Program-made: the position numbers and the translations under genes | DNA from: an uncultured delta proteobacterium | GTDB lineage: Bacteria > Desulfobacterota > Desulfobulbia > Desulfobulbales > Desulfocapsaceae | Assembly (NCBI GenBank): GCA_963796255.1 | Contig: CAWCLE010000010.1 | Coordinates: forward strand, 125,765-189,764 | DNA: 64,000 nt | Reading direction: 5' to 3' | Notes under the pieces: generated by a model | Databases searched by the model: none | Seen by the model: only the letters and a program-made list of their open reading frames with translations | What the model was told of the DNA's origin: nothing | Shown: positions 1 to 13,098 of the stretch, one piece after another | How the letters are laid out: each line of letters begins with the position of its first letter | How positions within the stretch are numbered: the stretch's first letter is position 1

Positions 1-489
1 TCTTTGTTCCTGCTGCAACTTCAATTTAATGATCGAGAGCTGATTATAATCGAAACGCGGAGTAAATGTAGACTGTCCGAGCTGGCCTGGAAGCTCCTCA
101 AGCTCCTTCGAGATTTTGGCGAATGTATTTGGCGTATCGATGTTTTTCAGAGATTTAATCCCGTATTCAAAGTCAATAAGCCGCATGGAGACATCGGTGA
201 GATAATCAACAAGATCTGACAGTTTCCGCTCGGTCTTCGGGATTGGTATCGTTGGCGGCGAGGAGGTGGCTGTTTTGGGGTCTTCAACTCCCATCGCCGG
301 CGGCACGAGTAGGCAGACGAGCGCGAGAATCACTGCCGCTGTTCTAACCCTGGAATAGAGATCAAATACCAGGCTTCTTTTCTCGTAATTAAAATGAAAA
401 AGCAGCTGTACCCTGCTGAGAATTGAGAGGTATGCCGAACGCTTACAGATCCAGGTTATTCGTTTATCCATGACTTTCTGGTGAGCCAT
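1..489 (-). CDS. Hypothetical exported or membrane-anchored protein, N-terminal 163 codons; the ORF runs off the window start
   Basis: My own minus-strand translation from the ATG at 489-487 gives MAHQKVMDKRITW...AAVILALVCLLVPPAMG, a hydrophobic signal or anchor, followed by a helical region ...AKISKELEELPGQLGQ. There is no stop before position 1. The start overlaps the stop of the upstream gene (TAATG), which suggests translational coupling. Confidence 0.4.
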   Translation of the reverse strand, partial: MAHQKVMDKRITWICKRSAYLSILSRVQLLFHFNYEKRSLVFDLYSRVRTAAVILALVCLLVPPAMGVEDPKTATSSPPTIPIPKTERKLSDLVDYLTDVSMRLIDFEYGIKSLKNIDTPNTFAKISKELEELPGQLGQSTFTPRFDYNQLSIIKLKLQQEQR

Positions 490-1607
490 TACCTTCCCGT
501 TATTAATGCGCTTTTATACGATAATGCGTCGAGCAGTTCAATACATCCTCCAGTCAGTGATGTCAGCGCATTCTTCTGGAGCCTTTCAGTCAGACTATGA
601 AGCTCACTCCCTTCCTGCAGATACTGCGAGTGAAGTTTTTCAGAACCTTTGCCACATATCGAGATCTGGGTGTCGGAAAAATTGGTGTTTAATAATGCCT
701 GCGCACTGTTGTCCGTTGTAACAGCAACCGTAGATGGCTCCACATTACCTCGGATTAAAAAATCACTCAAGAGAGCATAGTCACAAAGGGTATCAGTTTT
801 CCAAATCAACCAAAGAGGGCGGGCACCAACAGTGAAGATTCGTCTCCATTCCGGCGAAATGTACAGATCGCGTGCTGCCTCATATATTTTCCTTGCCATG
901 CCAATTGCCATAGGCGAGGACGTATCGGTTGCAGTTTCCGCTGAAAATACAGTGACAAGACGGCTGAAAGAAATTCGCGCAAAAGAAGTCACAACGGGAT
1001 CTAATCTCGAAATAATACGTCGCTCAACTCCCCGCAGATAAGCCTTGGCGGCAGCGAGAAGCTGTTCGGGTGAGAGAAGAAAAGCAAGAGTAATCGGGAT
1101 TCCCAAAAAAATTGCCTCCTCAAAGGCTTCAAGCCATTCGGGCAGGCCTGGAATGGTTATGATAATATTAGCTCGAGGGGCCTTTGCATAGAGCACTGAA
1201 ATCGCTGTTATCATAGAGACGGTATCAGTTATCGACATGGGAAAAATCGTCAGCGCAACCCACCCGTCAATACCGTTGGATTGGTCAAAAACGGATCGCA
1301 AAAGATCACAGGCATAACACGCATCCTCAATGATGAGTTCGAGAGCCAAAGGTTCTCCGAACAATCCTTCCTTAAGCCTTTTCCGAATTGCGTTGTCATA
1401 AACCCCTGTGGTCCGAAGAGCATGAGCACATGCCCTTGGATTAACTGATATTCCTTTTATTTTTATCGAGCCTTCCTGCAAATACTCTAAAAGCAATCCG
1501 TTTTCAAGCTGTACTCGAGTAATGTTCTCCAGCCACAGACTATGATTGTTATTGAGCAGGTTTGAAAGGCTGTTCAAAGTGCACTCCCTTAGACATTCTC
1601 TCTTCAT
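489..1607 (-). CDS. Transaldolase-family protein with substituted catalytic residues, probably non-catalytic
   Basis: 372-aa ORF. By eye it aligns to long-form transaldolases: SLWLENITR ~ SVWLDDLSR; KGISVNP ~ GVTTNP; DGWVALTIFP ~ DGxVSIEVDP; NIIITIPGL ~ NLFIKIPAT; RPLWLIW ~ RPLWAST. The Schiff-base Lys position and the Glu/Asp positions are Thr, Thr and Phe. Confidence 0.6.
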   Translation of the reverse strand: MKRECLRECTLNSLSNLLNNNHSLWLENITRVQLENGLLLEYLQEGSIKIKGISVNPRACAHALRTTGVYDNAIRKRLKEGLFGEPLALELIIEDACYACDLLRSVFDQSNGIDGWVALTIFPMSITDTVSMITAISVLYAKAPRANIIITIPGLPEWLEAFEEAIFLGIPITLAFLLSPEQLLAAAKAYLRGVERRIISRLDPVVTSFARISFSRLVTVFSAETATDTSSPMAIGMARKIYEAARDLYISPEWRRIFTVGARPLWLIWKTDTLCDYALLSDFLIRGNVEPSTVAVTTDNSAQALLNTNFSDTQISICGKGSEKLHSQYLQEGSELHSLTERLQKNALTSLTGGCIELLDALSYKSALITGR

Positions 1608-1689
1608 TAAAGAAAATACGACCGGTTGTTTTCATGACCATAGAATGAAGCAAGATTTTTACAACAAAAATATTGTGTTTTTTTTATCA

Positions 1690-1705
1690 GCAAGAAAAAG
1701 ACCAG
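1690..1705 (-). promoter_or_regulatory. Candidate sigma-54 promoter facing the transaldolase-like gene
   Basis: The minus strand reads CTGGTCTTTTTCTTGC, with GG-N10-GC spacing and TTGC at -12. It lies about 85 nt upstream of the start at 1607. The identical 16-mer occurs at 4099-4114 on the plus strand. Confidence 0.45.
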
Positions 1706-1846
1706 GAAAGGCCAAAAACTTGCCAAAGGGTAGTAAGATGTGTAATTTCAATAGACTTGTAATTATTGTAAGGTGCACCCGACGGGACCTGGCAAGCGAC
1801 GCCGTCCTCAACATTTTGAGGTTCTGCTAATGGTTGAGGCAATTAA
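1690..1846. repeat. Left arm of a ~155-bp imperfect inverted duplication flanking the activator gene
   Basis: The reverse complement of 3961-4117 aligns along the whole arm. Two blocks are identical: GCAAGAAAAAGACCAG (1690-1705) and the 33-nt core CCTCAACATTTTGAGGTTCTGCTAATGGTTGAG (1806-1838). Shorter shared blocks include AATTTCAAT, TAATTATT and CCGAC. Confidence 0.85.
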
Positions 1847-1952
1847 CAGCAGTCTTTTTTAATTGATACCAGCCCGCAATCAGTGGTATTCATTGTGGTA
1901 AATAAAACTACTTGATGCAACACCATTCATTCCAGCTTCAAACCTATACTTT

Positions 1953-3911
1953 ATGCTCAAAAATGACCATCAATCCCCCGATCGGCAATCTTTCGAGACG
2001 CTGCTGCTGGATATATCCACACAATTCATCAACCTCCCAATTGATCAGATTGATGCTTTAATTGAAGACACCCAGAGAAGAATCTGCGATTTTTTTGGTT
2101 ACGATATGTCGGGTTTATGGCAGTGGACAGCTGAGGAACCACGCTTTATGCACCTGACGCACCTCTGCAGTCCAGCCGATGGACCAAAGCGTCCTGCCCA
2201 TATAAACGCAGAACTGGCTTTTCCATGGACATTACGAACGCTGCTCAAAGGACAATCAACGGTTGTTCATACAGAAAAAATGCCGAAAAATTCTGCTCTT
2301 GAGCAGCATACTCGTCGTCATTACGGTATCAAGTCGTCTGCTGTATTCCCTCTTTTGACGGGCGGCAAATCTGTTTTCGGCATAATAAGTTTCGACAATC
2401 TGCGCCAGGAACATGCCTCAAGCCCAAAGTGCTTGAGCAGACTAAAGCTGGTCACCCAGATTTTCAGTAATGCATTGGCCCGAAAAATTGATGATGAAAG
2501 TCTGCGAGAAAGCGCGGATCGTCTCAATTTGGCCACGAATTCTGCTGGTGCAGGTATATGGGATTATGATTGTCGAACACAAATATTTTGGGTCACAGAG
2601 CAGATCCGATTGATGTTTTCTTATGATGAACATGAGCAGATCAGTCTTGCCCGTTTCGAACGTTCTATCTATCCCACGGATCTCCCGCGCGTGCGACAGG
2701 CCTTGGCTCAAGCCCTTGCAACGGCAACTCCCATTGAGGTCGATTACCGCGTCCGGATCGGCAACGATGAACTGAAGTGGATTCACTCAAAAGGTCAACT
2801 CTGTTCAGACAGCGACGGAAACGCTGTGCGGATATTAGGTGTGTCCATAGACATAAGTGAACAAAAGCGCCTGGAAAATGAACTGAAAGAGCACATCAAG
2901 ACAGTTGAATCACTTAAAAAGCAACTCGAAGGTGAGAATATCTATCTCCGTGAAGAGCTTCAGAGAGAGCAGGGATTCGAACAGATAATCGGCACCAGCA
3001 AACCGCTGGAAAAAGTGCTTACGGCTGCCAGACAGGTCGCAGCAACAGATGCAACCGCTCTCCTGTATGGTGAAACTGGAACCGGCAAGGGAGTTCTGGC
3101 GAATGCAATTCATAAAATGAGTTCTCGCAGTGAGCAGCCGTTTGTCATCGTAAACTGCGCGGCTCTGCCGGCTAATCTTATCGAGAGTGAGCTCTTCGGC
3201 AGAGAAAAAGGGGCCTTTACAGGAGCTCATGCCCGGCAGTTGGGACGCTTCGAGATTGCCAACCGGGGCACGATTTTTCTCGATGAGATCGGAGAATTGC
3301 CGCTGGAGCTGCAAGCCAAACTTCTGCGTGTGCTGCAAGACGGTGAATTCGAAAGACTCGGCAGTGGCAAAACGGTGAAAGTTGATATCAGAGTAATAGC
3401 AGCAACAGCGCGAGATCTCAGTCAAGAGGTTCATAACCACCAATTTCGCCAGGACCTTTTTTACCGACTCAACGTTTTTCCAATTACTCTCCCGCCATTG
3501 CGGCTGCGGGGCCAGGATATTGTCCTACTGGCCGAATACTTTGTCAAAAAATATAGCCGCAAGATGAACAAGGATATTCAAAGTATACCTAAAAACTCCA
3601 TCGACAAAATGCTGCGGTACAGTTGGCCGGGCAACGTAAGAGAACTCGAACATCTCATTGAGCGAAGTGTGATCATCAGCCCGGAAAATTCATTTCTGCT
3701 GGCCGACGAATCCAGGTCCCTGTCCGCCACGAGCCTGGCCAGCTGTAATGATAAAGATCTGGCGTCTATCGAACGTAATTATATCAAGAAAATACTGAAT
3801 AAAACGGAATGGAGAATCGATGGACCCGGCGGCGCGGCTGCCGTTCTTGACCTCAATCCGAGCACCCTGCGCTTCCGGATGAAAAAACTTGGCATCCAGC
3901 GGCCCGTATAA
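1953..3911 (+). CDS. Sigma-54-dependent transcriptional activator (GAF-like + PAS-like sensor, AAA+ core, C-terminal HTH)
   Basis: 652 aa. It carries Walker A GETGTGKG, the GAFTGA sigma-54 contact loop, ESELFG, and a Fis-type HTH ([21 protein letters not shown]). There is no receiver domain. Confidence 0.9.
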
Positions 3912-3979
3912 GAATATTTAATTTCCTCCCATAATACGCTTAAACAAGGCGCAGCAGCATTTATTGTCTCAACCATTAG

Positions 3980-4014
3980 CAGAACCTCAAAATGTTGAGG
4001 TCTGCTTTTCTTTG
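3980..4014 (+). terminator. Possible weak intrinsic terminator of the activator gene, overlapping the repeat-core dyad
   Basis: CAGAACCTCAA-aatg-TTGAGGTCTG forms a stem with one bulge and is followed by CTTTTCTTTG. The same dyad may instead be a protein-binding site. Confidence 0.3.
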
Positions 4015-4098
4015 CGTATCTTGTCGGTTGGACCCTAAAATAATTATAAATACATTGAAATTGCACACTTTACCGCCGTTGGCATTTTTGGGTCACTG

Positions 4099-4114
4099 CT
4101 GGTCTTTTTCTTGC
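4099..4114 (+). promoter_or_regulatory. Candidate sigma-54 promoter for the DUF1254/DUF1214 cluster
   Basis: CTGGTCTTTTTCTTGC has GG-N10-GC spacing and TTGCT at -12. It lies about 100 bp downstream of the dyad CCTCAA-N4-TTGAGG and about 205 bp upstream of the ATG at 4322. Confidence 0.5.
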
Positions 4115-4321
4115 TTTATGATTATAAAGGTGGGTTACGGGAAACAGGAGATGAATTTCAGGTGCAGGCTTTTTATAGCGAGGAAGCTCTGGATGGCGGC
4201 GCAGACTGGAGCCTGCGGCTTCAGTTGCAACTCCTTTTTCCGAACTCAATGCTCAAAGCGGTAAAAATGCTGGAGCAGTAAATGGCTTCAATAAATCTCC
4301 TTTAATATCCACAATCAGAGG

Positions 4322-5839
4322 ATGAAAATGAAAATACATAATTCACTCACAATCACGATCGCCGCTGTTGGTATAGCCCTGTCGGGCATATCGATCGGCC
4401 AAGCGGAAGTCACTCAAGAAACCCTCGAATCAATCTCCATTCCCGATAAGGTCGAGACAAGCATAGGTACCCTCGAGTTTTTCGATGGTGTTCCTTCCGA
4501 CGCCACCATCGACAAGGTCTATAACAACCTCGACCGCATGCGCGGCGTCGTGGCCTATCTTGACAACGTGGGTGGCGTCTCCATCCAGAGCGTCCTCGAC
4601 GGGCTTGCCCGTGAAGGTGCCGATGCACCCAACAAGATCGCCCTGTTTGGCGCGCTGATGAATTCCAAAACCCTGGTGGTCACCGCCAACACCTCGACTA
4701 TGTACGCCTATGCCGGCACGGATCTAGCCAATGACGGGCCCACGGTTATCGAGATTCCACCGGGTATGCTCGGCTTCCTCGACGATGCGTGGCAGCGATT
4801 TGTCGGAAATATGGGCGTGACCGGACCGGACAAGGGGAAGGGCGGCAAGTATCTGGTGGTGCCGCCAGGTTACACCAGCGATATCCCGGATGGATATTTC
4901 CTGCTGCAGCCACCGACCAACCGCAACTTCTTGTTTCTGCGCGGCTCGATTGCGAAAGGCCTTGATCCCGCGCTCAAGAACATCACTTCCGGGCTTAAAA
5001 TCTATCCGTTGAAAGACGCAGCTAAGCCGGCGCAAACTGAGTTTGTCAACATGTCGGACAAGGCATTCAACACGGTTTTTCCCAACGACCTGCAGTATTT
5101 CGAAATCCTCAACGCCATGATCCAGCGCGAGCCAATCGAGGCGATCGGGCCTGAGATGCGCGGCACCCTCGCCGCAATTGGTATCGTCAAGGGCAAGCCG
5201 TTCGCCCCCGATGCACGCATGAAGAAATTGTTGACCGAGGCGGCCACGATCGGCAACGCCACCGGACGCGCCATCAGCTACCAGCCACGCATCGACGGGG
5301 TGTTCATTTACCCGGATACTAACAGCGCCTGGAGCACGGCCTACGCCAACCACAACACGTCGTTCGAGGCCGACGGCACGATGGGCCTGGATGCGCGGGT
5401 ACTGTTCTATTTCAACGCTGGTGGTGTGACGCCGGCGATGGCGACCAGTCATGTGGGTCAGGGATCGGATTACGGGCTGGCCATGCTCGACGCCAACAAG
5501 AAGCCGTTCGACGGCTCCAAGACCTACAAACTGCATCTGCCACCCAATGTCCCGGTGAACGATTTCTGGGCATTGACGATGTATGACACCCAGACCCGCT
5601 CTATGCTGCAGACCAGCCAGCTGTTCCCGACCGTCGGCAGCCAGTCGAAGGGTATTCAGAAAAATGCCGACGGCTCTTTTGACATCTATTTCGGCCCGAC
5701 GGCACCGGCAGGCAAAGAGGGCAACTGGCTGGCAACGGTGCCGGGTAAAAGCTGGTTCACCATACTGAGAATGTATGGTCCGCTGGAGCCCTGGATTAAG
5801 AAAACCTGGCGGCCCAGTGAAATCGAACTGGTCAAGTAA
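4322..5839 (+). CDS. Secreted DUF1254/DUF1214 domain protein, paralogue 1
   Basis: 505 aa with a signal peptide (AAVGIALSGISIGQA). The C-terminal half has DUF1214-type motifs (DFWALTMYD, WFTILRMYGP). By eye it is very similar to 7544-9049. The ATG at 4328 is better spaced from the AGAGGA Shine-Dalgarno sequence. Confidence 0.8.
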   Translation: MKMKIHNSLTITIAAVGIALSGISIGQAEVTQETLESISIPDKVETSIGTLEFFDGVPSDATIDKVYNNLDRMRGVVAYLDNVGGVSIQSVLDGLAREGADAPNKIALFGALMNSKTLVVTANTSTMYAYAGTDLANDGPTVIEIPPGMLGFLDDAWQRFVGNMGVTGPDKGKGGKYLVVPPGYTSDIPDGYFLLQPPTNRNFLFLRGSIAKGLDPALKNITSGLKIYPLKDAAKPAQTEFVNMSDKAFNTVFPNDLQYFEILNAMIQREPIEAIGPEMRGTLAAIGIVKGKPFAPDARMKKLLTEAATIGNATGRAISYQPRIDGVFIYPDTNSAWSTAYANHNTSFEADGTMGLDARVLFYFNAGGVTPAMATSHVGQGSDYGLAMLDANKKPFDGSKTYKLHLPPNVPVNDFWALTMYDTQTRSMLQTSQLFPTVGSQSKGIQKNADGSFDIYFGPTAPAGKEGNWLATVPGKSWFTILRMYGPLEPWIKKTWRPSEIELVK

Positions 5840-5975
5840 AGCGCGTTTACAATCGGATCGAAACCGGGCCTTCCGTGTCTGCGGATAAAGAAGGCCCGAT
5901 CAATCATTAGCGTTGAACCGGATCAGGCACGATCCGGGACAGCGCGGACAAAACCATGAATCAGGAGCAATCACC

Positions 5976-7439
5976 ATGACCAAATTCTCCCGTACCACCA
6001 TCAGGCTGGCACTTGCAGGCGTGTTTTCGCTTGTCCTGCTGTCGCCCTGCAACAAGGTTGCAGCCCAGACATCCGCTGCACCGGCGGATGGACTGACTAC
6101 CGAGCAGTTCAAAGCTATCGCCGAAGATGGCTTTATTTACGGCCTGCCGCTGGTGATGAACTACGCGATCATGAACGAATATGCGGTCGACCCGCATTCG
6201 AGTCAGTTCAAGGCACCGTTCAATCACATCAAGAACCTCGCGCGCGTGTTCACCTACAAGGATACCGCGGTCGTCACCGCCAACAGCGACACGCCGTATT
6301 CGTTCCTGTGGCTGGACCTGCGTGCCGAGCCGATGGTGATCTCGGTACCGGCCGTATCCAAGGACCGTTACTACTCGGTAATGCTGGCCGACGGCCACAC
6401 CTACAATTACGGCTATATCGGCAGCCGTGCCACCGGCGACAAGGCCGGCAAATACATGGTTGCCGGTCCCGACTGGAAAGGCGAGAAACCAGCCGGCATC
6501 GATAAGATGTTCCAATCGCTCACACCGTTCAGTCTCGCCGCGTTCCGCACCCAGTTAATCGATCCCGCGGACATGCCTAACGTGGAGAAAGTCCAGGCCC
6601 AGTACAAGGCCGAGCCACTGTCGGCTTTCCTGGGCCAGCCGGCACCGGCTGCGGCCCCTGATCCCGACTTCCTCCCGGCTACCACCGCCGGTATCAAGGC
6701 GAACTTCTGGACCTACCTCGGCGCGGCGCTCAAGTACCTCCCGGAGGCTGACGAAGACAAGGACATCCGCGCCAAGCTGGCCCAGATCGGTGTTGGCCCC
6801 GGCAAGACCTTCGACATAAAATCGCTGTCGCCCGAGCGTCAGGAAGCCATGGTCGAGGCAATGAAGGCCGGTGAAGCGAAGGTGGCCAAATATGTGTCCT
6901 CCGGCTTGACCGATGTCAACGGCTGGCAGGTCGGCTCGCTGCCGGGTGACCGGGCGCATTACAACGGCGACTGGGTCATGCGTGCAGCCACCGCCAAGGC
7001 GGGCATCTATGGCAACGATGCCGCCGAAGCCATGTATCCGCTGAGCCCGGTGGATTCGAACGGCAACACCATCGATACCAGCAAGCACAACTACACGCTC
7101 ACCTTCGCCGCCGGGCAACTGCCGCCGGTGAACTCGTTCTGGTCGGTGACTATGTACGACGGCAAGTCGCAGCTCTTGATCAAGAATCCGATTAATCGCT
7201 ATCTGGTCAATACGGCGATGGTGTCAGACATGAAGAAGAACGCGGACGGATCCGTGACCATCTATATCCAGAAGGATTCGCCGGGCAAGGCCAAGGAAGC
7301 CAACTGGCTGCCTGCGCCGAACGACACCGTCTACCTGGTCATGCGCCTGTACTGGCCGAAACCGGCCACCGAGCCACTTTCGATCCTTCCAGCCGGCAAA
7401 GGTACCTGGAAGCCACCGAGCATTGTGGTCGCCGACTGA
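5976..7439 (+). CDS. Secreted DUF1254/DUF1214 domain protein, divergent paralogue 2
   Basis: The ORF track starts it at 5913. I prefer the ATG at 5976 (MTKFSRTTIRLALAGVFSLVLL, a signal peptide), which is preceded by CAGGAG. Motifs include DTPYSFLWLDL, SFWSVTMYD and VMRLYWP. Confidence 0.75.
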   Translation: MTKFSRTTIRLALAGVFSLVLLSPCNKVAAQTSAAPADGLTTEQFKAIAEDGFIYGLPLVMNYAIMNEYAVDPHSSQFKAPFNHIKNLARVFTYKDTAVVTANSDTPYSFLWLDLRAEPMVISVPAVSKDRYYSVMLADGHTYNYGYIGSRATGDKAGKYMVAGPDWKGEKPAGIDKMFQSLTPFSLAAFRTQLIDPADMPNVEKVQAQYKAEPLSAFLGQPAPAAAPDPDFLPATTAGIKANFWTYLGAALKYLPEADEDKDIRAKLAQIGVGPGKTFDIKSLSPERQEAMVEAMKAGEAKVAKYVSSGLTDVNGWQVGSLPGDRAHYNGDWVMRAATAKAGIYGNDAAEAMYPLSPVDSNGNTIDTSKHNYTLTFAAGQLPPVNSFWSVTMYDGKSQLLIKNPINRYLVNTAMVSDMKKNADGSVTIYIQKDSPGKAKEANWLPAPNDTVYLVMRLYWPKPATEPLSILPAGKGTWKPPSIVVAD

Positions 7440-7543
7440 TCGAGCGACTGCCCGAAGTGACAAGAATACAACAGTAACCGCGACGCGTACAAGGGGTCGC
7501 CTGAAGCGCCCCCTTGGTCGTCCATTCTATAGGAACTACCGCC

Positions 7544-9049
7544 ATGAATCTACGCCCTCTAAGTTTTGCCGTTATTGCGGCTCTCATCATGCTGCCGCTG
7601 TTACACACTGCCTCCGCTGAAGTCAGCAAGGCCGAACTGGAATCGATTTCGATCCCGGATCGGATCGACACGCCGATTGGCGAATTGCAGTTCTTTGACG
7701 GCGTGCCCACCGACGCTACCATCAACAAGGTCTATGATAACCTCGACCGCATGCGGGGGGTTCGGGCGTATCTTGACAACTCGGGCGCCGCATCGTTGTA
7801 CGGGATGCGCATGGGCAACGCCGGCATCGGCGCGACGGCGAACACAGTCAGCATCACCGAACAACTGCTCAAGCCGGAATCCCTGTACCTGACCGGCAAC
7901 ACCAGCACCTTGTATGCGCTGACTTATCTCGATGTAAAGACTGACAGTCCACTGGTGGTAGAACTGCCACCGGGCATGCTCGGGTTTCTCGACGATGCCT
8001 GGTTCCGCTTTATCGAGAACATGGGTGTGGTTGGCCCGGATCGCGGCAAGGGCGGCAAATACCTGCTGCTGCCTCCGGGTTACGCGGGCGCTGTGCCCGA
8101 GGGCTATTTTGTGGTCAAGATGCCCACCTATCACAACCTGATGTTCCTCCGCGGCTCGATCGCTAAAGGTCTGGCGCCGGCAGTCGAGAACATCAAGTCC
8201 GGGCTGAAGATCTATCCGCTAGCGAAGGCTGACAATCCACCGGCGACGCAGTTCATCAATTTCTCCGGCAAAAGCTACAACACGGTTGTGACCAGGGGCC
8301 TGAAGTTCTATGAAGGTCTCAATCAGATCGTGCAGGAAGAACCGATCGATGCTATCGGACCGGAGATGCGCGGCAACCTGGCTGCCATCGGCATCGTCAA
8401 GGGACAGTCGTTCAAGCCCGATGCACGCATGCAGAAGCTGCTGATCGAGGCTGCGGACATCGGTGCTGCCACAGCGCGTGCCATTACCTACCAGCCGCGC
8501 ATCAGCGGTGTGGAAATCTATCCCGATACCCACAGTGCCTGGACCATGGGTTACGCCAACAAGAACACTTCGTTCACTTCTGATGGCGCGATGAACCTGG
8601 ATGCGCGAGTGTTGTTTTATTACAACGCCACCGGCGTCACTCCGGCCATGGCGATGACGCGAGCGGGAGCCGGCTCCGATTACGGCATTGCCTACCTGGA
8701 CGCCAACAAGAAGGCGTTCGACGGCTCCAAAACTTACAAGCTGCACCTGCCTCCCCACGTGCCCGTGAACAATTTCTGGGCGGTCACTCTTTATGACACC
8801 CAGACACGTTCGCTGCTGCAGACGGATCAACCTTTCCCGACCCTTGGCAGCCAGAGCAAGGGTTTCGAAAAGAGTGCCGATGGTTCCTACGACCTGTATT
8901 TCGCACCAAAAGCGCCAAAGGGCAATGAAGGCAACTGGCTGCAGACCATACCGGGCAAGAGCTGGTTCACGATCCTGCGCATGTACGGCCCGCTGGAGCC
9001 GTGGATCAACAAGAGCTGGCGGCCAAGCGAGATTGAACTGGTCAAGTAG
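7544..9049 (+). CDS. Secreted DUF1254/DUF1214 domain protein, paralogue 3 (close copy of paralogue 1)
   Basis: The preferred start is the ATG at 7544 (MNLRPLSFAVIAALIMLPLL). Long stretches are nearly identical to 4322-5839, for example LESISIPD, FFDGVP.DATI.KVY.NLDRMRGV and KSWFTILRMYGPLEPWI.K.WRPSEIELVK. Confidence 0.8.
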   Translation: MNLRPLSFAVIAALIMLPLLHTASAEVSKAELESISIPDRIDTPIGELQFFDGVPTDATINKVYDNLDRMRGVRAYLDNSGAASLYGMRMGNAGIGATANTVSITEQLLKPESLYLTGNTSTLYALTYLDVKTDSPLVVELPPGMLGFLDDAWFRFIENMGVVGPDRGKGGKYLLLPPGYAGAVPEGYFVVKMPTYHNLMFLRGSIAKGLAPAVENIKSGLKIYPLAKADNPPATQFINFSGKSYNTVVTRGLKFYEGLNQIVQEEPIDAIGPEMRGNLAAIGIVKGQSFKPDARMQKLLIEAADIGAATARAITYQPRISGVEIYPDTHSAWTMGYANKNTSFTSDGAMNLDARVLFYYNATGVTPAMAMTRAGAGSDYGIAYLDANKKAFDGSKTYKLHLPPHVPVNNFWAVTLYDTQTRSLLQTDQPFPTLGSQSKGFEKSADGSYDLYFAPKAPKGNEGNWLQTIPGKSWFTILRMYGPLEPWINKSWRPSEIELVK

Positions 9050-9094
9050 ATCACCCATTTCTTCACAAACATCCAAACCTGGGAGACTTCGATT

Positions 9095-10144
9095 ATGAAA
9101 ACATTTTTTTCCCGTACCGCATTCGTACTGGCATGTGGGCTTGTCTGCGTCCCGCTGGCGGCAACAGCCAATGATGTAACGACCATGGCCGACGGTGCCG
9201 TTGTCGTCAATGTCGACAATTTCAACAAGGCGCAAACCGATCGCGAGTTTGCCGGCACCCTGAAGATGTCCGGCGGCATCAACAAGCTGGTCAACAACCG
9301 CGCACCAACCCCGATCGACAAGCAGAATGTCATCCGTATGAACCGCGATACGCTTTACAGCATGGCTGTGGTCGATATTTCCAAAGGCGCGACCGTCACC
9401 CTGCCGGATTCCGGCAAGCGCTACATGTCATTGATGGTCGTCAACAATGACGGCTACATCAACAAGGTGTTTTACGGCGGCGGTACTTACCAGCTGACAA
9501 CGGACCAGTTCGATACGCCGTTTGTCTTCGTGGCCGTTCGCACACTCGCCAACTCCGAAGATCAGGCGGATCTGGCTGCAGCCCACAAGCTCCAGGACCA
9601 GATCAAGATCGAAGCCGGCTCCGCACAAGCGTTTGTCATGCCGCACTATGACGAGGCCAGCTACAAGGCAACGCTCGAGCCCATTCTCGCCCTGGCCAAG
9701 GGCCTGAAGCGGTATACCCACACTTTCGGCTCCAAAGCCGAGGTTAATCCAGTTCACTTTATGATCGGCAGCGCTTCCGCCTGGGGCGGTCTGCCGGACA
9801 ACGACGCTCAGTATTACAACATTCAGCCCAACCTGCCGGTCGGCAAGTACGAACTGACGGTCAAGGATGTTCCGGTCAAGGGTTTTTGGTCGATCAGCCT
9901 GTACAACGAGAAAGGCTATTTCCAGGAAAATGACCTGCACGCATACAACCTGAACAATCTGATCGCAAAGCCAAACAGCGATGGATCGTACACAGTGCGA
10001 TTTGGCGGCTGCACTGCCACCACGGAAAACTGCCTGCCGATCATGGACGGCTGGAACTACAGCGTGCGCATGTATGAGCCGAGCAAGGCGATCGTTGACG
10101 GGAGCTGGGTATTTCCTGGCCCACCGACGCCACGCAAGGATTGA
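9095..10144 (+). CDS. Secreted shorter DUF1254/DUF1214-related protein, paralogue 4
   Basis: 349 aa with a signal peptide (VCVPLAATA). Motifs include RMNRDTLYSMAVVD, GFWSISLYN and YSVRMYEP. Confidence 0.7.
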   Translation: MKTFFSRTAFVLACGLVCVPLAATANDVTTMADGAVVVNVDNFNKAQTDREFAGTLKMSGGINKLVNNRAPTPIDKQNVIRMNRDTLYSMAVVDISKGATVTLPDSGKRYMSLMVVNNDGYINKVFYGGGTYQLTTDQFDTPFVFVAVRTLANSEDQADLAAAHKLQDQIKIEAGSAQAFVMPHYDEASYKATLEPILALAKGLKRYTHTFGSKAEVNPVHFMIGSASAWGGLPDNDAQYYNIQPNLPVGKYELTVKDVPVKGFWSISLYNEKGYFQENDLHAYNLNNLIAKPNSDGSYTVRFGGCTATTENCLPIMDGWNYSVRMYEPSKAIVDGSWVFPGPPTPRKD

Positions 10145-10269
10145 TTGGCGCTCTGGATTGGCGATAAGAAAGCCAGGTTTTTCATCTTCCGTCTTATGGG
10201 GAGCAAGACGTCTGGACCCAAATAATAGCCAATGATTAAAGAGGGGCTAAAAGGGGAGCTAATGAAGCT

Positions 10270-11247
10270 ATGACTTTGCAAACCATGAGAAATCCAGGAC
10301 TGTTTCTGGGCTTGGCGGTTCTGTTTGTGGCCAATCCGGTTTTAGCCGACGAGGGCGGGGTTGCGTTCTGGTTCTCGGGCCAGTACGCGAGCCTCGCTGC
10401 TGTCCCGGCAACGCCGGGTTGGGTATTACCGCTACAGGGTTACTATTACAACGGCAGTGCTTCCAAGAGTAAGTCGTTCACCGGTGGCGACAGTGTGACG
10501 CTCGGTCTCGAATCGCGAGTGCCACTTCTCTTGGTTCAACCGTCCTATGCGCCAAAGACGAAGCTGTTCGGCGGTCAGGCGTTAATCGGGCTTGGGTTCG
10601 GCTATGGCGAGAACACGACTGAGGCCGATCTCTCGATTTCCTCACGCGGCACCGTGGTTGATAGAAGCGACTCAACGACCGGATTTACTGATCTGTATCC
10701 GGTCGCCAGTCTCGCATGGAATAAAGGCGTCCATAATTGGATGACGTACGTGACCGGCGACATACCGACAGGCGACTACGACTCAAAGCGGCTCGCCAAT
10801 ATCGGCATCGGCCATGCAGCAATCGACGCCGGCGCCGGCTACACCTATTTGAATGAGCAGAGCGGACTTGAGTTCTCCGGGGTCGCCGGGCTTACGTATA
10901 ACTGGGAGAATGATGACACCGACTATCAGAACGGCATCGACTCTCATATCGACTTGGGTGTCTCCCAGTTCCTGTCCGCACATTGGCAGGTGGGTATTGC
11001 CGGCTATGTCTACTATCAGCTCACCGGTGACAGCGGCACTGGCGCAAAGCTCGGTTCCTTCGAATCGGAGGTTGCTGCTGTCGGGCCGCAGGTCGGTTAC
11101 CTCTTTTCCATCAATGGCTTGCCGGCGTATGTTAACGTGCGTGGCTACAAGGAGTTCTCGGCCGAGAATCGGGTCGAAGGCTATTCGGTGTTCGCCACGC
11201 TGGCGATTCCGCTCGGTCCAAACAATAACAAAACCAAGACCAAATGA
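10270..11247 (+). CDS. Outer-membrane beta-barrel channel, MetA-pathway-of-phenol-degradation-like family (assigned from memory)
   Basis: 325 aa with a signal peptide ending VLADEG. It shows alternating amphipathic strands, the motif IGHAAIDAGAGYTYL, and aromatic-rich C-terminal strands. Confidence 0.6.
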   Translation: MTLQTMRNPGLFLGLAVLFVANPVLADEGGVAFWFSGQYASLAAVPATPGWVLPLQGYYYNGSASKSKSFTGGDSVTLGLESRVPLLLVQPSYAPKTKLFGGQALIGLGFGYGENTTEADLSISSRGTVVDRSDSTTGFTDLYPVASLAWNKGVHNWMTYVTGDIPTGDYDSKRLANIGIGHAAIDAGAGYTYLNEQSGLEFSGVAGLTYNWENDDTDYQNGIDSHIDLGVSQFLSAHWQVGIAGYVYYQLTGDSGTGAKLGSFESEVAAVGPQVGYLFSINGLPAYVNVRGYKEFSAENRVEGYSVFATLAIPLGPNNNKTKTK

Positions 11248-11536: not shown

Positions 11537-12046
11537 TCAATGGTAAAAGGATTCTCTGAAACGGATATCGTAAGCGGAAGGTAAAGCCTCACGTCCTTCG
11601 CCAAGCAGAAAAAGATAGGCATAGACGGCCGATTGCAAAAAAGCATCCGGGGCAAGGCGATTGCTCTCCCAATTCGAACTTTCCCTCATCTTCGTACCAT
11701 AGAGATAGCTCACTTCTGCAATGGCAAAGAGAAGATCGCGACGATCGTCTCGAACAATGAGCTCATGGAGAATCTGGAGGGTCTTTGGCAAGCCGGCAGT
11801 AGATGTATTCTGGAGATTATACCGATGCAGTACGGCCATGGAACTGTTACTGAGTTCCTCCTCACTCATCGGGTTGACGATAATATCCTGATAGGATTCC
11901 TGTGGCGAGACACGAATGACACCCACTGGATTTGCACAACCTGAGAGCAGAACGAGAAAAAATAGGCCCATCACGGAAAAACCGAGCAAGCCGGAGCAGT
12001 AAAACGGCTTTTTCTTCTTTGGATATCTGATGGTAATTTTATTCAT
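11537..12046 (-). CDS. Lipoprotein of unknown function, possibly a truncated gene
   Basis: 169 aa with lipobox LLSGC. It overlaps the stop of the upstream DUF4105 gene by 4 nt. It ends abruptly next to the G+C-richer block. Confidence 0.5.
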   Translation of the reverse strand: MNKITIRYPKKKKPFYCSGLLGFSVMGLFFLVLLSGCANPVGVIRVSPQESYQDIIVNPMSEEELSNSSMAVLHRYNLQNTSTAGLPKTLQILHELIVRDDRRDLLFAIAEVSYLYGTKMRESSNWESNRLAPDAFLQSAVYAYLFLLGEGREALPSAYDIRFRESFYH

Positions 12047-13098
12047 TCGTTTATACCAGGGATTCCTTGACGAATAAGGAGCGAAAAATCCTGGTCCCGG
12101 GATATCCCCTGGGCTTTTGGGTTGATATAACTCAGTTGTTTCAGTTCGGCAAAGGGCAGGTTATCGACGACAAATCCTCGCTGATAGATCATTTCATCGA
12201 GATAGCCGTTGACGATAAGCCGCCAGTCAAATTTCGCATCGGGATTATAGGGTACGCTGTGCCGACGCATGCTGGTCGTGCAGTTGGCGGTCAGCGCGTT
12301 ATACCACTCCGGCGTGGTATTGAGCGAGTTGACCGAACGGAGATAATCGAGGAAAACCCTTCGCGCAATGGTCGGTGAGATCTGCAGGCGGTACAGGTAG
12401 ACATCTTCTTTGCGAAAGTTGGTCCGCAGCCGGACGACATCCCGCTCATCGGCGACAATATACATCTGCTCGTACTGGCGAAAAAAACCTTTGACAGTTG
12501 AATAATCTTCTCCCTTTTCCTTACGCGTTTCAATCGAGAAACATATATAACTGCCGTCGGCGAAACCAAAGCTTAACATGGTGTGGGCGATACTCGGCGA
12601 CCCCCAATAAACCAGAAAGAGATCCACGGTCTGCAGCGAAGCCAGCGATACGGTCTTGTCATAGTAACGGCAGGTAAAATCGGTTTCACTGCGGTAGTCG
12701 CAAAAGCGGATATTGCGCACAGTTATCGAATCGCCGTTAATCTGAGCCGAGGCGAGCACCGCCGCATCGGCTTGCCAGTCCCGGGTGTTGGAGGGAGGGA
12801 GCCGTAAAAACCAGCCGACAACCAGCAAAAAAAGCACCAAGAAAGCCATGAATCCGTAGCGACGAGGACGAATAACCAGCGGTAAGAGCAGTGACACCAG
12901 ACCAAAAGCGACGATTATCGGCATTCGGATGCTATTGTGCGGTAAGGTAAAAAAAAGCGTCAAGATGGCCCATAACAGCATGCCCGCGAAAAGAACAAAA
13001 AGTACTGTCCAGCCGACAATAGTGACTTTTGATCTTCGAGTCTTTGATCGTAATGTTAAATTTTTCATTTCAGGCAGCGTCCGACAAAGACGCATCAA
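12043..13098 (-). CDS. DUF4105 (Lnb-like N-terminal) domain membrane protein
   Basis: 351 aa. The N-terminus has TM helices. It is followed by HTMLSFGF and YSTVKGFFRQYEQMYIVADERDVVRLRTNFRKEDVYLYRL, a pattern typical of DUF4105. Confidence 0.7.
   Translation of the reverse strand: MMRLCRTLPEMKNLTLRSKTRRSKVTIVGWTVLFVLFAGMLLWAILTLFFTLPHNSIRMPIIVAFGLVSLLLPLVIRPRRYGFMAFLVLFLLVVGWFLRLPPSNTRDWQADAAVLASAQINGDSITVRNIRFCDYRSETDFTCRYYDKTVSLASLQTVDLFLVYWGSPSIAHTMLSFGFADGSYICFSIETRKEKGEDYSTVKGFFRQYEQMYIVADERDVVRLRTNFRKEDVYLYRLQISPTIARRVFLDYLRSVNSLNTTPEWYNALTANCTTSMRRHSVPYNPDAKFDWRLIVNGYLDEMIYQRGFVVDNLPFAELKQLSYINPKAQGISRDQDFSLLIRQGIPGINE

Follow-up and report, generated by a model that had tools for sequence, protein, structure and literature searches.

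NifA at nifH and NtrC at glnAp2 are classical examples of sigma-54 enhancer-promoters assisted by integration host factor (IHF), with two full dyads, and the -24/-12 consensus of sigma-54 promoters is a TGGCAC-N5-TTGCW-like element in which the GG and the GC lie 10 nt apart. An IHF site (consensus WATCARNNNNTTR) between enhancer and promoter is common in such systems without being obligatory. In Desulfovibrio vulgaris Hildenborough, OrpR (DVU2106) binds palindromes and, together with sigma-54 and IHF, synchronises the divergent operons orp1 and orp2; IHF sites lie between the palindromic OrpR sites and the promoters, and an OrpR site that overlaps the activator's own sigma-70 promoter serves to repress it (PMC3897727). 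The OrpR system is that of Fievet et al. 2011, as cited in PMC3897727 and PMC4641369, and in the regulome of D. vulgaris most sigma-54 promoters are found within 100 nt of the nearest activator site, with six of 13 one-component activators divergent from their targets (PMC4641369). Here we describe a locus comparable to these in an uncultured Desulfobulbaceae-type bacterium (assembly G000; 4.6 Mb in 26 contigs, 49.3% G+C). It lies in a stretch of 64,000 nt, hereafter the window (G000:C10:125765-189764), where two mirrored arms of about 155 nt enclose the gene for a sigma-54 activator with GAF and PAS domains. In our reading, to which we give a probability of roughly 0.85, the arms are copies of the enhancer-promoter unit of a small sigma-54 regulon and not the ends of a mobile element.

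Each unit would have three parts: a composite site of ~33 nt, made up of a dyad CTCAA-N4-TTGAG and a CTCAA half-site 18 nt away; a spacer of ~100 nt whose centre is AT-rich and probably bendable; and a -24/-12 sigma-54 promoter, TGGTCT-N5-TTGCT. The GAF-PAS-AAA+ activator encoded at 1953-3911, which ends in a helix-turn-helix (HTH) domain, is predicted to bind the sites through this Fis-type HTH, to assemble on them once its sensor domains receive a signal and, by DNA looping and with ATP, to bring sigma-54 RNA polymerase at three promoters into the open-complex state. Of these, the left one would drive a six-gene operon (transaldolase-fold, MscS-like, patatin-Omp85, DUF2092, a small open reading frame (ORF) and MscS-like), the right one an outer-membrane channel gene together with four DUF1254/DUF1214 genes, and the third, 11.3 kb further left, a secreted protein of 274 amino acids (aa). 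Activator binding, sigma-54 dependence and the transcription starts are what we infer here from sequence.

OrpR with orp1 and orp2 is the closest precedent. Both arrangements have one enhancer-binding protein with outward sigma-54 operons in its own cluster, a palindromic site upstream of each promoter, a (here putative) bend region between site and promoter, and one site near enough to the activator's (here putative) promoter for negative feedback. They differ in that the G000 activator sits on a different branch of the family and has GAF-PAS sensors, that the site is CTCAA-N4-TTGAG, that the targets are envelope and secreted proteins with the third promoter 11 kb away, and that the promoter units are paralogous over their whole length; the G000 system is, moreover, a predicted one. 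With nifH and glnAp2 the locus shares a dyad ~100-130 nt upstream of a GG-N10-GC promoter and an AT-rich segment between the two, and with NifA and NtrC an AAA+ activator with GAFTGA and a C-terminal Fis-type HTH, whereas its site has a different sequence and is composite, with a third half-site, and its spacer matches the IHF consensus poorly. The one-component enhancer-binding-protein regulons of the Desulfovibrionales (Kazakov et al. 2015, PMC4641369) are likewise small, local and lineage-specific, with the activator co-localised with its sigma-54 targets and often divergent from them, and with sites typically within ~100 nt of the promoter; the Desulfobulbaceae/Desulforhopalus-type lineage and the activator group treated here, in contrast, lie outside that reconstruction. 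The mechanism is an ordinary, textbook one; the activator subgroup, the site and the targets are undescribed.

The arms, at 1689-1846 and 3960-4117, are inverted copies of each other, 77-83% identical, and the activator is the sole gene between them. They were returned by the repeat finder as two pairs, 1726-1846 with 3960-4080 (121 nt, 77% complementary) and 1689-1718 with 4086-4115 (30 nt, 83%), and could be aligned with MAFFT across ~158 nt; these results confirm what an earlier note on this DNA had described, imperfect inverted copies containing two perfectly conserved blocks. The first block is the 33-mer CCTCAACATTTTGAGGTTCTGCTAATGGTTGAG, exact at 1806-1838 (+) and 3968-4000 (-), which has no other match in the window with three mismatches allowed (0 expected from shuffles) and no match in the metagenome contigs. 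The second block, CTGGTCTTTTTCTTGCT, is also exact and, with its flanking bases, is 17 nt long and not 16 nt as first given. Beyond the two blocks arm identity is only ~66%, at which 50 unchanged positions would have a probability of 0.66^50, or ~1e-9, under uniform drift, with the caveat that the blocks were chosen after the fact; uniform drift therefore cannot explain the exact blocks.

The cassette proved to exist in three copies, not just as a pair. A search of the organism's own genome found the third copy at G000:C10:116168-116318, 79% identical and in the orientation of the left arm, 11.3 kb to the left of that arm and outside the window, so that all copies genome-wide fall in one 14-kb stretch. 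The third copy has an identical 17-mer promoter block, a core with one substitution and a dyad-promoter gap of 98 nt. When a profile was built from 13 sites of six species, it singled out these three copies in the 4.6-Mb genome (E 6e-9 to 5e-8), the next-best match having an E of 0.066.

The promoter sequence TGGTCTTTTTCTTGC occurs exactly at 1690-1704 (-) and 4100-4114 (+), with a spacing canonical for sigma-54, TGG-N8-TTGC, that is, GG-N10-GC. From the left promoter, with its -24 GG and -12 GC, transcription would run leftward from a predicted start near 1678, ~70 nt ahead of the ATG at 1607, and from the right promoter rightward from near 4126, with a leader of ~200 nt; pattern match and orientations confirm the earlier assignment of the left copy to the transaldolase-like gene and of the right copy to the DUF1254/DUF1214 cluster. 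TGGTCT-TTTTC-TTGCT, with sigma-54 spacing, is identical across all three G000 copies. Each copy has the same layout, a site of ~33 nt, a spacer of 98-102 nt and a TGG-N8-TTGC promoter pointing away from the site, and the dyad, placed before at about 100 bp upstream of the promoter-like element, lies at 100 nt in the right arm and 102 nt in the left. The genome carries rpoN (Sigma54_DBD, 210.8 bits; 487-aa open frame on G000:C22), and a GG-N10-GC element at equal distance from the dyad stands upstream of the transaldolase-fold ortholog in five congeners (G007, G013, G019, G033 and G062).

Two further features of these promoter regions were noted. All three copies carry a second conserved element, TTGGCA(T/A)(T/G)TTTTGG, placed 8-10 nt ahead of the -24 TGG (window 1705-1726 and 4078-4099; L004 10186-10207); it resembles a -24 box and has no GC at the proper distance. 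The leader of the right operon (window 4120-4269) has a long closing stem, GGGUUACGGGAAACAGGAG paired with CUCCUUUUUCCGAACUC (-50.4 kcal/mol, z -2.8), and holds a 37-codon Cys-rich ORF (4151-4264) and a weak terminator-like hairpin at 4214-4229, with no Rfam match in this leader; the fold could be an attenuator, or nothing.

Each copy contains the dyad CTCAA-N4-TTGAG within its conserved ~33-nt site. The left candidate activator site, or upstream activating sequence core, is the exact 33-mer at 1806-1838, which is also a genome-wide profile match; its dyad, CTCAA-CATT-TTGAG, occupies 1807-1820, a third CTCAA half-site 18 nt from the dyad makes the site composite, and its centre precedes the predicted leftward start by ~135 nt and the activator ATG by 115 nt. 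The right candidate site, at 3968-4000, is the reverse complement of the left, with its dyad at 3986-3999 and the dyad centre ~133 nt upstream of the predicted rightward start. When the 13 sites from six species are aligned, 13 of 38 columns are invariant, with a shared block of ~33 nt and the consensus C-C-n-n-(C/T)-A-A-C-N4-(A/G)-G-(C/T)-(A/G)-G-A-(A/T)-C-CTCAA-(A/T)-A-T-n-(T/C)-TG(A/C)GG. Because these columns are invariant across all 13 sites, the 33-nt core is a real phylogenetic footprint, in keeping with its earlier description as a conserved functional block containing the dyad. Between site and promoter the left spacer (1705-1805, -; ~100 nt) has an AT-rich centre, AATAATTACAAG...TTGAAATT, which may be a DNA-bending or IHF region. 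Such an AT-rich centre is kept in all cassettes compared. Of 11 cassettes from the different species, 10 have a spacer of 94-101 nt, and the remaining one has a spacer of 82 nt.

The right dyad and its flanks can also be drawn as an 11-bp RNA hairpin, GCAGAaCCUCAA-AAUG-UUGAGGUCUGC, followed by the U-rich tract UUUUCUUU (3978-4012, +), 70 nt after the activator stop codon (-16.4 kcal/mol, z -3.1), and a terminator scan matched 3984-4001 with the tail CTGCTTTTCT. A hairpin of this kind just past a stop codon is what one would see if the dyad blocks were mainly RNA elements, either intrinsic terminators or hairpins like repetitive extragenic palindromes, and the arm similarity that of a repeated extragenic element. 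The U-tract, however, is confined to the right copy, no such T-run having been found in the left copy, the third copy or the orthologous sites; the left and third copies stand upstream of their own promoters, where no gene ends; and only three copies exist genome-wide. A search of Rfam over 1-9000 at a permissive threshold found no RNA family, its one chance match, to a CRISPR direct repeat, falling inside the activator gene. The pattern of substitution speaks to the same question: across the 13 sites none of the six dyad pairs has changed on both sides, and all seven departures break the pairing. Since there are no compensatory changes and pairing is broken, the constraint is on the sequence, which points to a protein-binding DNA element and not an RNA structure, and we regard an RNA function as the main role of the dyads as extremely improbable. 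The right dyad might perhaps serve in addition to terminate the activator transcript, a role that would be at most local and secondary, and not conserved, because the U-tract is present in this copy only.

The activator gene (1953-3911, +) encodes a bacterial enhancer-binding protein of 652 aa, the proposed cognate regulator, in which Pfam recognises GAF, PAS_3, Sigma54_activat (PF00158, 2.2e-70), AAA-lid and, at residues 603-646, HTH_8 domains, and whose translation carries the GAFTGA, Walker A/B and DEIGE motifs of such proteins. Orthologs are present in six of 46 genomes of the genus, G000 included, full-length or, in G013, split; they share 64% identity with the G000 protein in G007, 59% in G062, 57% in G033, 56% in G019 and, over the C-terminal 380 residues, 71% in G013, while the next-best matches, at 38-46%, are paralogues. 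The C-terminal HTH_8 is conserved in the orthologs. The site pattern RGWWCYKCAAWATNNTGMGG was found in all six genomes with an ortholog, in 15 matches, none of them more than 5.3 kb from the activator gene, versus three of the 40 genomes without one, in one match each that deviates from the consensus. The hypergeometric probability that all six ortholog genomes fall among the nine positives is ~9e-6, and a reversed control of the pattern gave no match in any of the 46 genomes. The second helix of the HTH reads PST(L/V)R(F/Y)(R/K) in the six orthologs, with Ser at the aromatic position in the paralogues of 38-46% identity.

This co-occurrence bears on a second alternative, in which the enhancer-promoters are real sigma-54 elements bound by a different regulator encoded elsewhere, and the enclosed activator is a mere neighbour or target. 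The genome does contain many paralogous sigma-54 activators, and a cassette-like match is found beside a histidine kinase on a 7-kb Syntrophaceae contig where no activator is visible. Yet the site tracks the activator orthologs (6/6 versus 3/40 genomes) and always within 5.3 kb, the ortholog-specific signature of the recognition helix fits, and G067, a genome of a sister species, is without both activator and site, so that we judge regulation by another protein unlikely. The match on the Syntrophaceae contig belongs to a pair of side observations from outside the genus, each with GGTTCCTCAAAATATTGAGGG, ~100 nt and then GG-N10-GC: one on L044 (DFZJ01000009.1, Syntrophaceae UBA4059) at 1411-1547, where a CHASE3-PAS histidine kinase is adjacent and a ShlB/FhaC-type gene lies downstream, and the other on L049 (JBAQYH010000855.1, from a 'Methylobacter' bin) at 150-286. 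The two contigs agree, as reverse complements, over ~200 nt around the match, which suggests a related regulon outside the genus, with one of the contigs mis-binned.

Several points weigh against the regulon as we draw it. All genomes involved are metagenome-assembled. The -24 element TGGTCT deviates from the consensus TGGCAC, and IHF matches are weak: the right spacer has a single match, with 1 mismatch, the left spacer has none, and no IHF site is claimed. G000 encodes at least eight paralogous sigma-54 activator matches, and that the enclosed one acts on the site is what we infer from adjacency, co-occurrence and the helix signature, lines that are indirect yet agree with one another. Finally, a sigma-70 scan of 1838-1952 found no promoter for the activator; the left site may, on a weak analogy with the OrpR system, feed back on the activator's own expression. 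Set beside these points, the proposal of the earlier note that outward sigma-54 promoters are served by the enclosed GAF-PAS activator as one regulon is supported by orientation, spacing, the presence of rpoN, the domains of the protein, conservation in congeners and co-occurrence.

The conservation in congeners is of a particular kind. The matching genome contigs belong to metagenome-assembled genomes (MAGs) labelled Desulfobulbaceae, Desulforhopalus or Desulfobacterales. A BLAST search with the whole cassette against 60 relatives returned only the 30-nt core in G013, and as it was nearly empty, conservation across species is at the level of motifs only. At that level the cassettes are conserved, with site, promoter and spacing kept beside the activator in five congeners: all five have the dyad CTCAA-N4-TTGAG (CTCAATATCCTGCGG in some sites) together with a GG-N10-GC promoter (for example TGGCACTGCGATTGCT in G033, TGGCATGTTCTTTGCT in G019 and CGGCATGTAATTTGCT in G007), and the dyad-promoter spacer is 94-97 nt in seven of eight congener cassettes, the other intergenic DNA being unalignable.

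Both flanking positions are occupied in congeners as well. In G007, G013, G062 and G019 a site lies 35-60 nt after the activator stop codon, in the position of the right arm. In G007 and G062 a promoter-like GG-N10-GC (CGGCATG...TTTGCT) follows ~97-103 nt downstream of this site, facing SulP-STAS, PPK2, DUF3302 and HlyD genes in G007 (L037 3915-8864) and GT28 and SulP genes in G062 (L039 8763-11740); in G013 the site is followed only by a weak promoter candidate, TGG-N8-TCAC. A further cassette stands 3.6-5.2 kb away in G007 and G013, ahead of an operon of Lnb_N and alpha/beta-hydrolase genes. The presence of sites at both flanking positions in congeners argues that both positions are ancestral in the genus, and each genome appears to have two to three local promoters per regulon. 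The neighbours found in this way (SulP, PPK2, GT28 with patatin, Lnb-like and PLD-like proteins) hint at a theme of phosphate, polyphosphate or membrane-lipid remodelling.

Further observations on individual genes belong beside this comparison. In G013 (L006, G013:C11, 7210-10598) the activator is split into 278 and 369 aa and the transaldolase-fold gene into 281 and 166 aa, which may reflect either a decaying regulon or frameshift errors in the MAG. In the window, at 11537-13098, a 169-aa ORF next to Lnb_N is a partial match to a 647-aa PGAP1-like alpha/beta hydrolase. In G007 (L037 13247-16329) and G013 (L006 14419-17411) this hydrolase follows Lnb_N in an operon headed by a site and a sigma-54 promoter, whereas in G000 the hydrolase is truncated and Lnb_N stands behind an MscS-like gene, without a site; the regulon would have been rewired in G000 at Lnb_N and the hydrolase.

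A third alternative sees in the arms the ends of a mobile element, as its terminal inverted repeats, or else the recombination sites through which a programmed inversion would flip the activator gene. The locus has the look of such an element, with 2.1 kb of DNA enclosed by inverted arms of 155 nt that share a perfect 33-nt core. In addition, activator and transaldolase-fold gene are transcribed divergently in G000, G007, G013 and G062, but stand in tandem, with the activator upstream, in G019 and G033. This difference in orientation implies at least one evolutionary inversion of the activator gene with respect to its target. Exactly such an inversion would result from recombination between inverted sites; as each outward promoter would keep a site, the inversion need have no regulatory meaning. 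The two orientations are fixed differences among species. In the ~35 kb examined, no gene for a transposase, integrase or invertase was found between the arms or next to them; the flanking genes are those of envelope proteins, and the absence of a recombinase stated earlier was confirmed. Moreover, the third copy is in direct orientation, 11 kb away and in the same relation of promoter to gene; what the arms conserve is a sigma-54 promoter with a dyad at enhancer distance, a layout that persists in congeners whose arms are otherwise dissimilar; there are only three copies in the genome, all local, and none in the metagenome contig scan; and after an inversion through the cores every outward promoter would still have a core, so that no switching effect is obvious. 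No flanking direct repeats, as target duplications, were seen at the boundaries of the three copies. With no recombinase, no dispersed copies and no target duplications, the mobile-element reading was rejected, and the alternative that the earlier note had kept in view, terminal repeats of a mobile or invertible segment, is unsupported and in our estimate very unlikely. In the reading of the arms as enhancer-promoter units, the mirror symmetry follows from the position of the activator gene, with a promoter pointing outward on either side of it.

The first gene of the leftward operon (489-1607, -) encodes a transaldolase-fold protein of 372 aa (Pfam TAL_FSA, 2.5e-15). Beyond the edge of the window the operon continues, tightly spaced, with genes for an MscS-like protein, a patatin-POTRA-Omp85 protein, a DUF2092 protein, a 99-aa ORF and a second MscS-like protein. 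An ortholog of the transaldolase-fold gene adjoins the activator ortholog in G007, G062, G013, G019 and G033, which would make it the conserved core target of the regulon. The rightward operon (4322-11247, +; Pfam) consists of three DUF1254/DUF1214 proteins of 505-511 aa, one of 349 aa and one outer-membrane channel of the Phenol_MetA_deg type. Its G+C content is 56-60%, versus 45-49% in the flanks and 49.3% in the genome, and the DUF1254/DUF1214 and channel block was probably acquired horizontally; a literature search for DUF1254 together with DUF1214 found no papers. The third promoter faces the 274-aa ORF (C10:115179-116000, L052), which has a signal-peptide-like start and no Pfam match.

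How the three copies arose can be followed in their spacers. By global alignment of the spacers only against shuffles, those of the three G000 copies are homologous (66-74% identity, z 9.5-10.3), whereas spacers of different species are unalignable except for the orthologous pair from G007 and G062 (z 10) and, weakly, those ahead of the transaldolase-fold genes of G013 and G019 (z 4.8); a pair of spacers within G007 gave a weak signal (z 4.4). The G000 copies become homologous 4-5 nt ahead of the core; the right and third copies remain so until about +20 (GTTACGGGAAACA), the left and third until about +50, and the copied module hence comprises site, spacer and promoter together with the initial 20-50 nt of the leader. 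Whole units of ~185-215 bp were thus duplicated or homogenised after the split from the sampled congeners. The three units are recent paralogues, spacer included, formed by duplication or gene conversion, in which core and promoter seem to have been held constant since copying as the spacer drifted. As a history, the earlier idea of a regulatory region duplicated in inverted orientation is too simple. The extended similarity of ~155 nt between the arms is specific to G000, but the site positions on either side of the activator are older and genus-wide.

The gene behind the third promoter offers a comparison with a sister species. At the DNA level the copies of the 274-aa gene at G000:C10:115179-116000 and G067:C8:66874-67695 (L053) are 90% identical, with homology that reaches 23 nt ahead of the start codon and 9 nt past the stop and then gives way to unrelated flanks. 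Upstream of the gene G067 has unrelated sequence with a TTGACA-like hexamer (sigma-70-like) and the palindrome TTAGTACACTAGTACTAG, and its genome holds no activator ortholog, no site and no close homolog of the transaldolase-fold gene (best 28% identity). The difference between the two genomes is one of a gene-sized exchange or a promoter swap. Copied modules thus appear to head both the G+C-rich DUF1254/DUF1214 block and a gene that is differently promoted in a sister species. We therefore put forward, as a tentative proposal that we hold to be possible rather than probable, that the regulon grows by pasting the promoter module of ~185-215 bp onto newly arrived genes, and not by the de novo origin of sites, and that the inverted pair mediated the inversion of the activator.

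Taken as a regulon, the locus provides a motif, three promoters and a set of targets, all readable from the sequence, for an uncharacterised GAF-PAS sigma-54 activator of uncultured Desulfobulbaceae-type bacteria. That a whole enhancer-promoter unit has apparently been copied within one genome, and now stands ahead of acquired genes, adds a modest extra interest. Shared control would link transaldolase-fold, secreted DUF1254/DUF1214, MscS-like, patatin-Omp85 and LolA-like proteins in G000, and the targets in relatives include Lnb-like, PGAP1-like hydrolase, GT28, SulP and PPK2 genes. For envelope proteins of unknown function such as these, shared control may serve as a functional lead, perhaps towards the remodelling of the envelope or its lipids.

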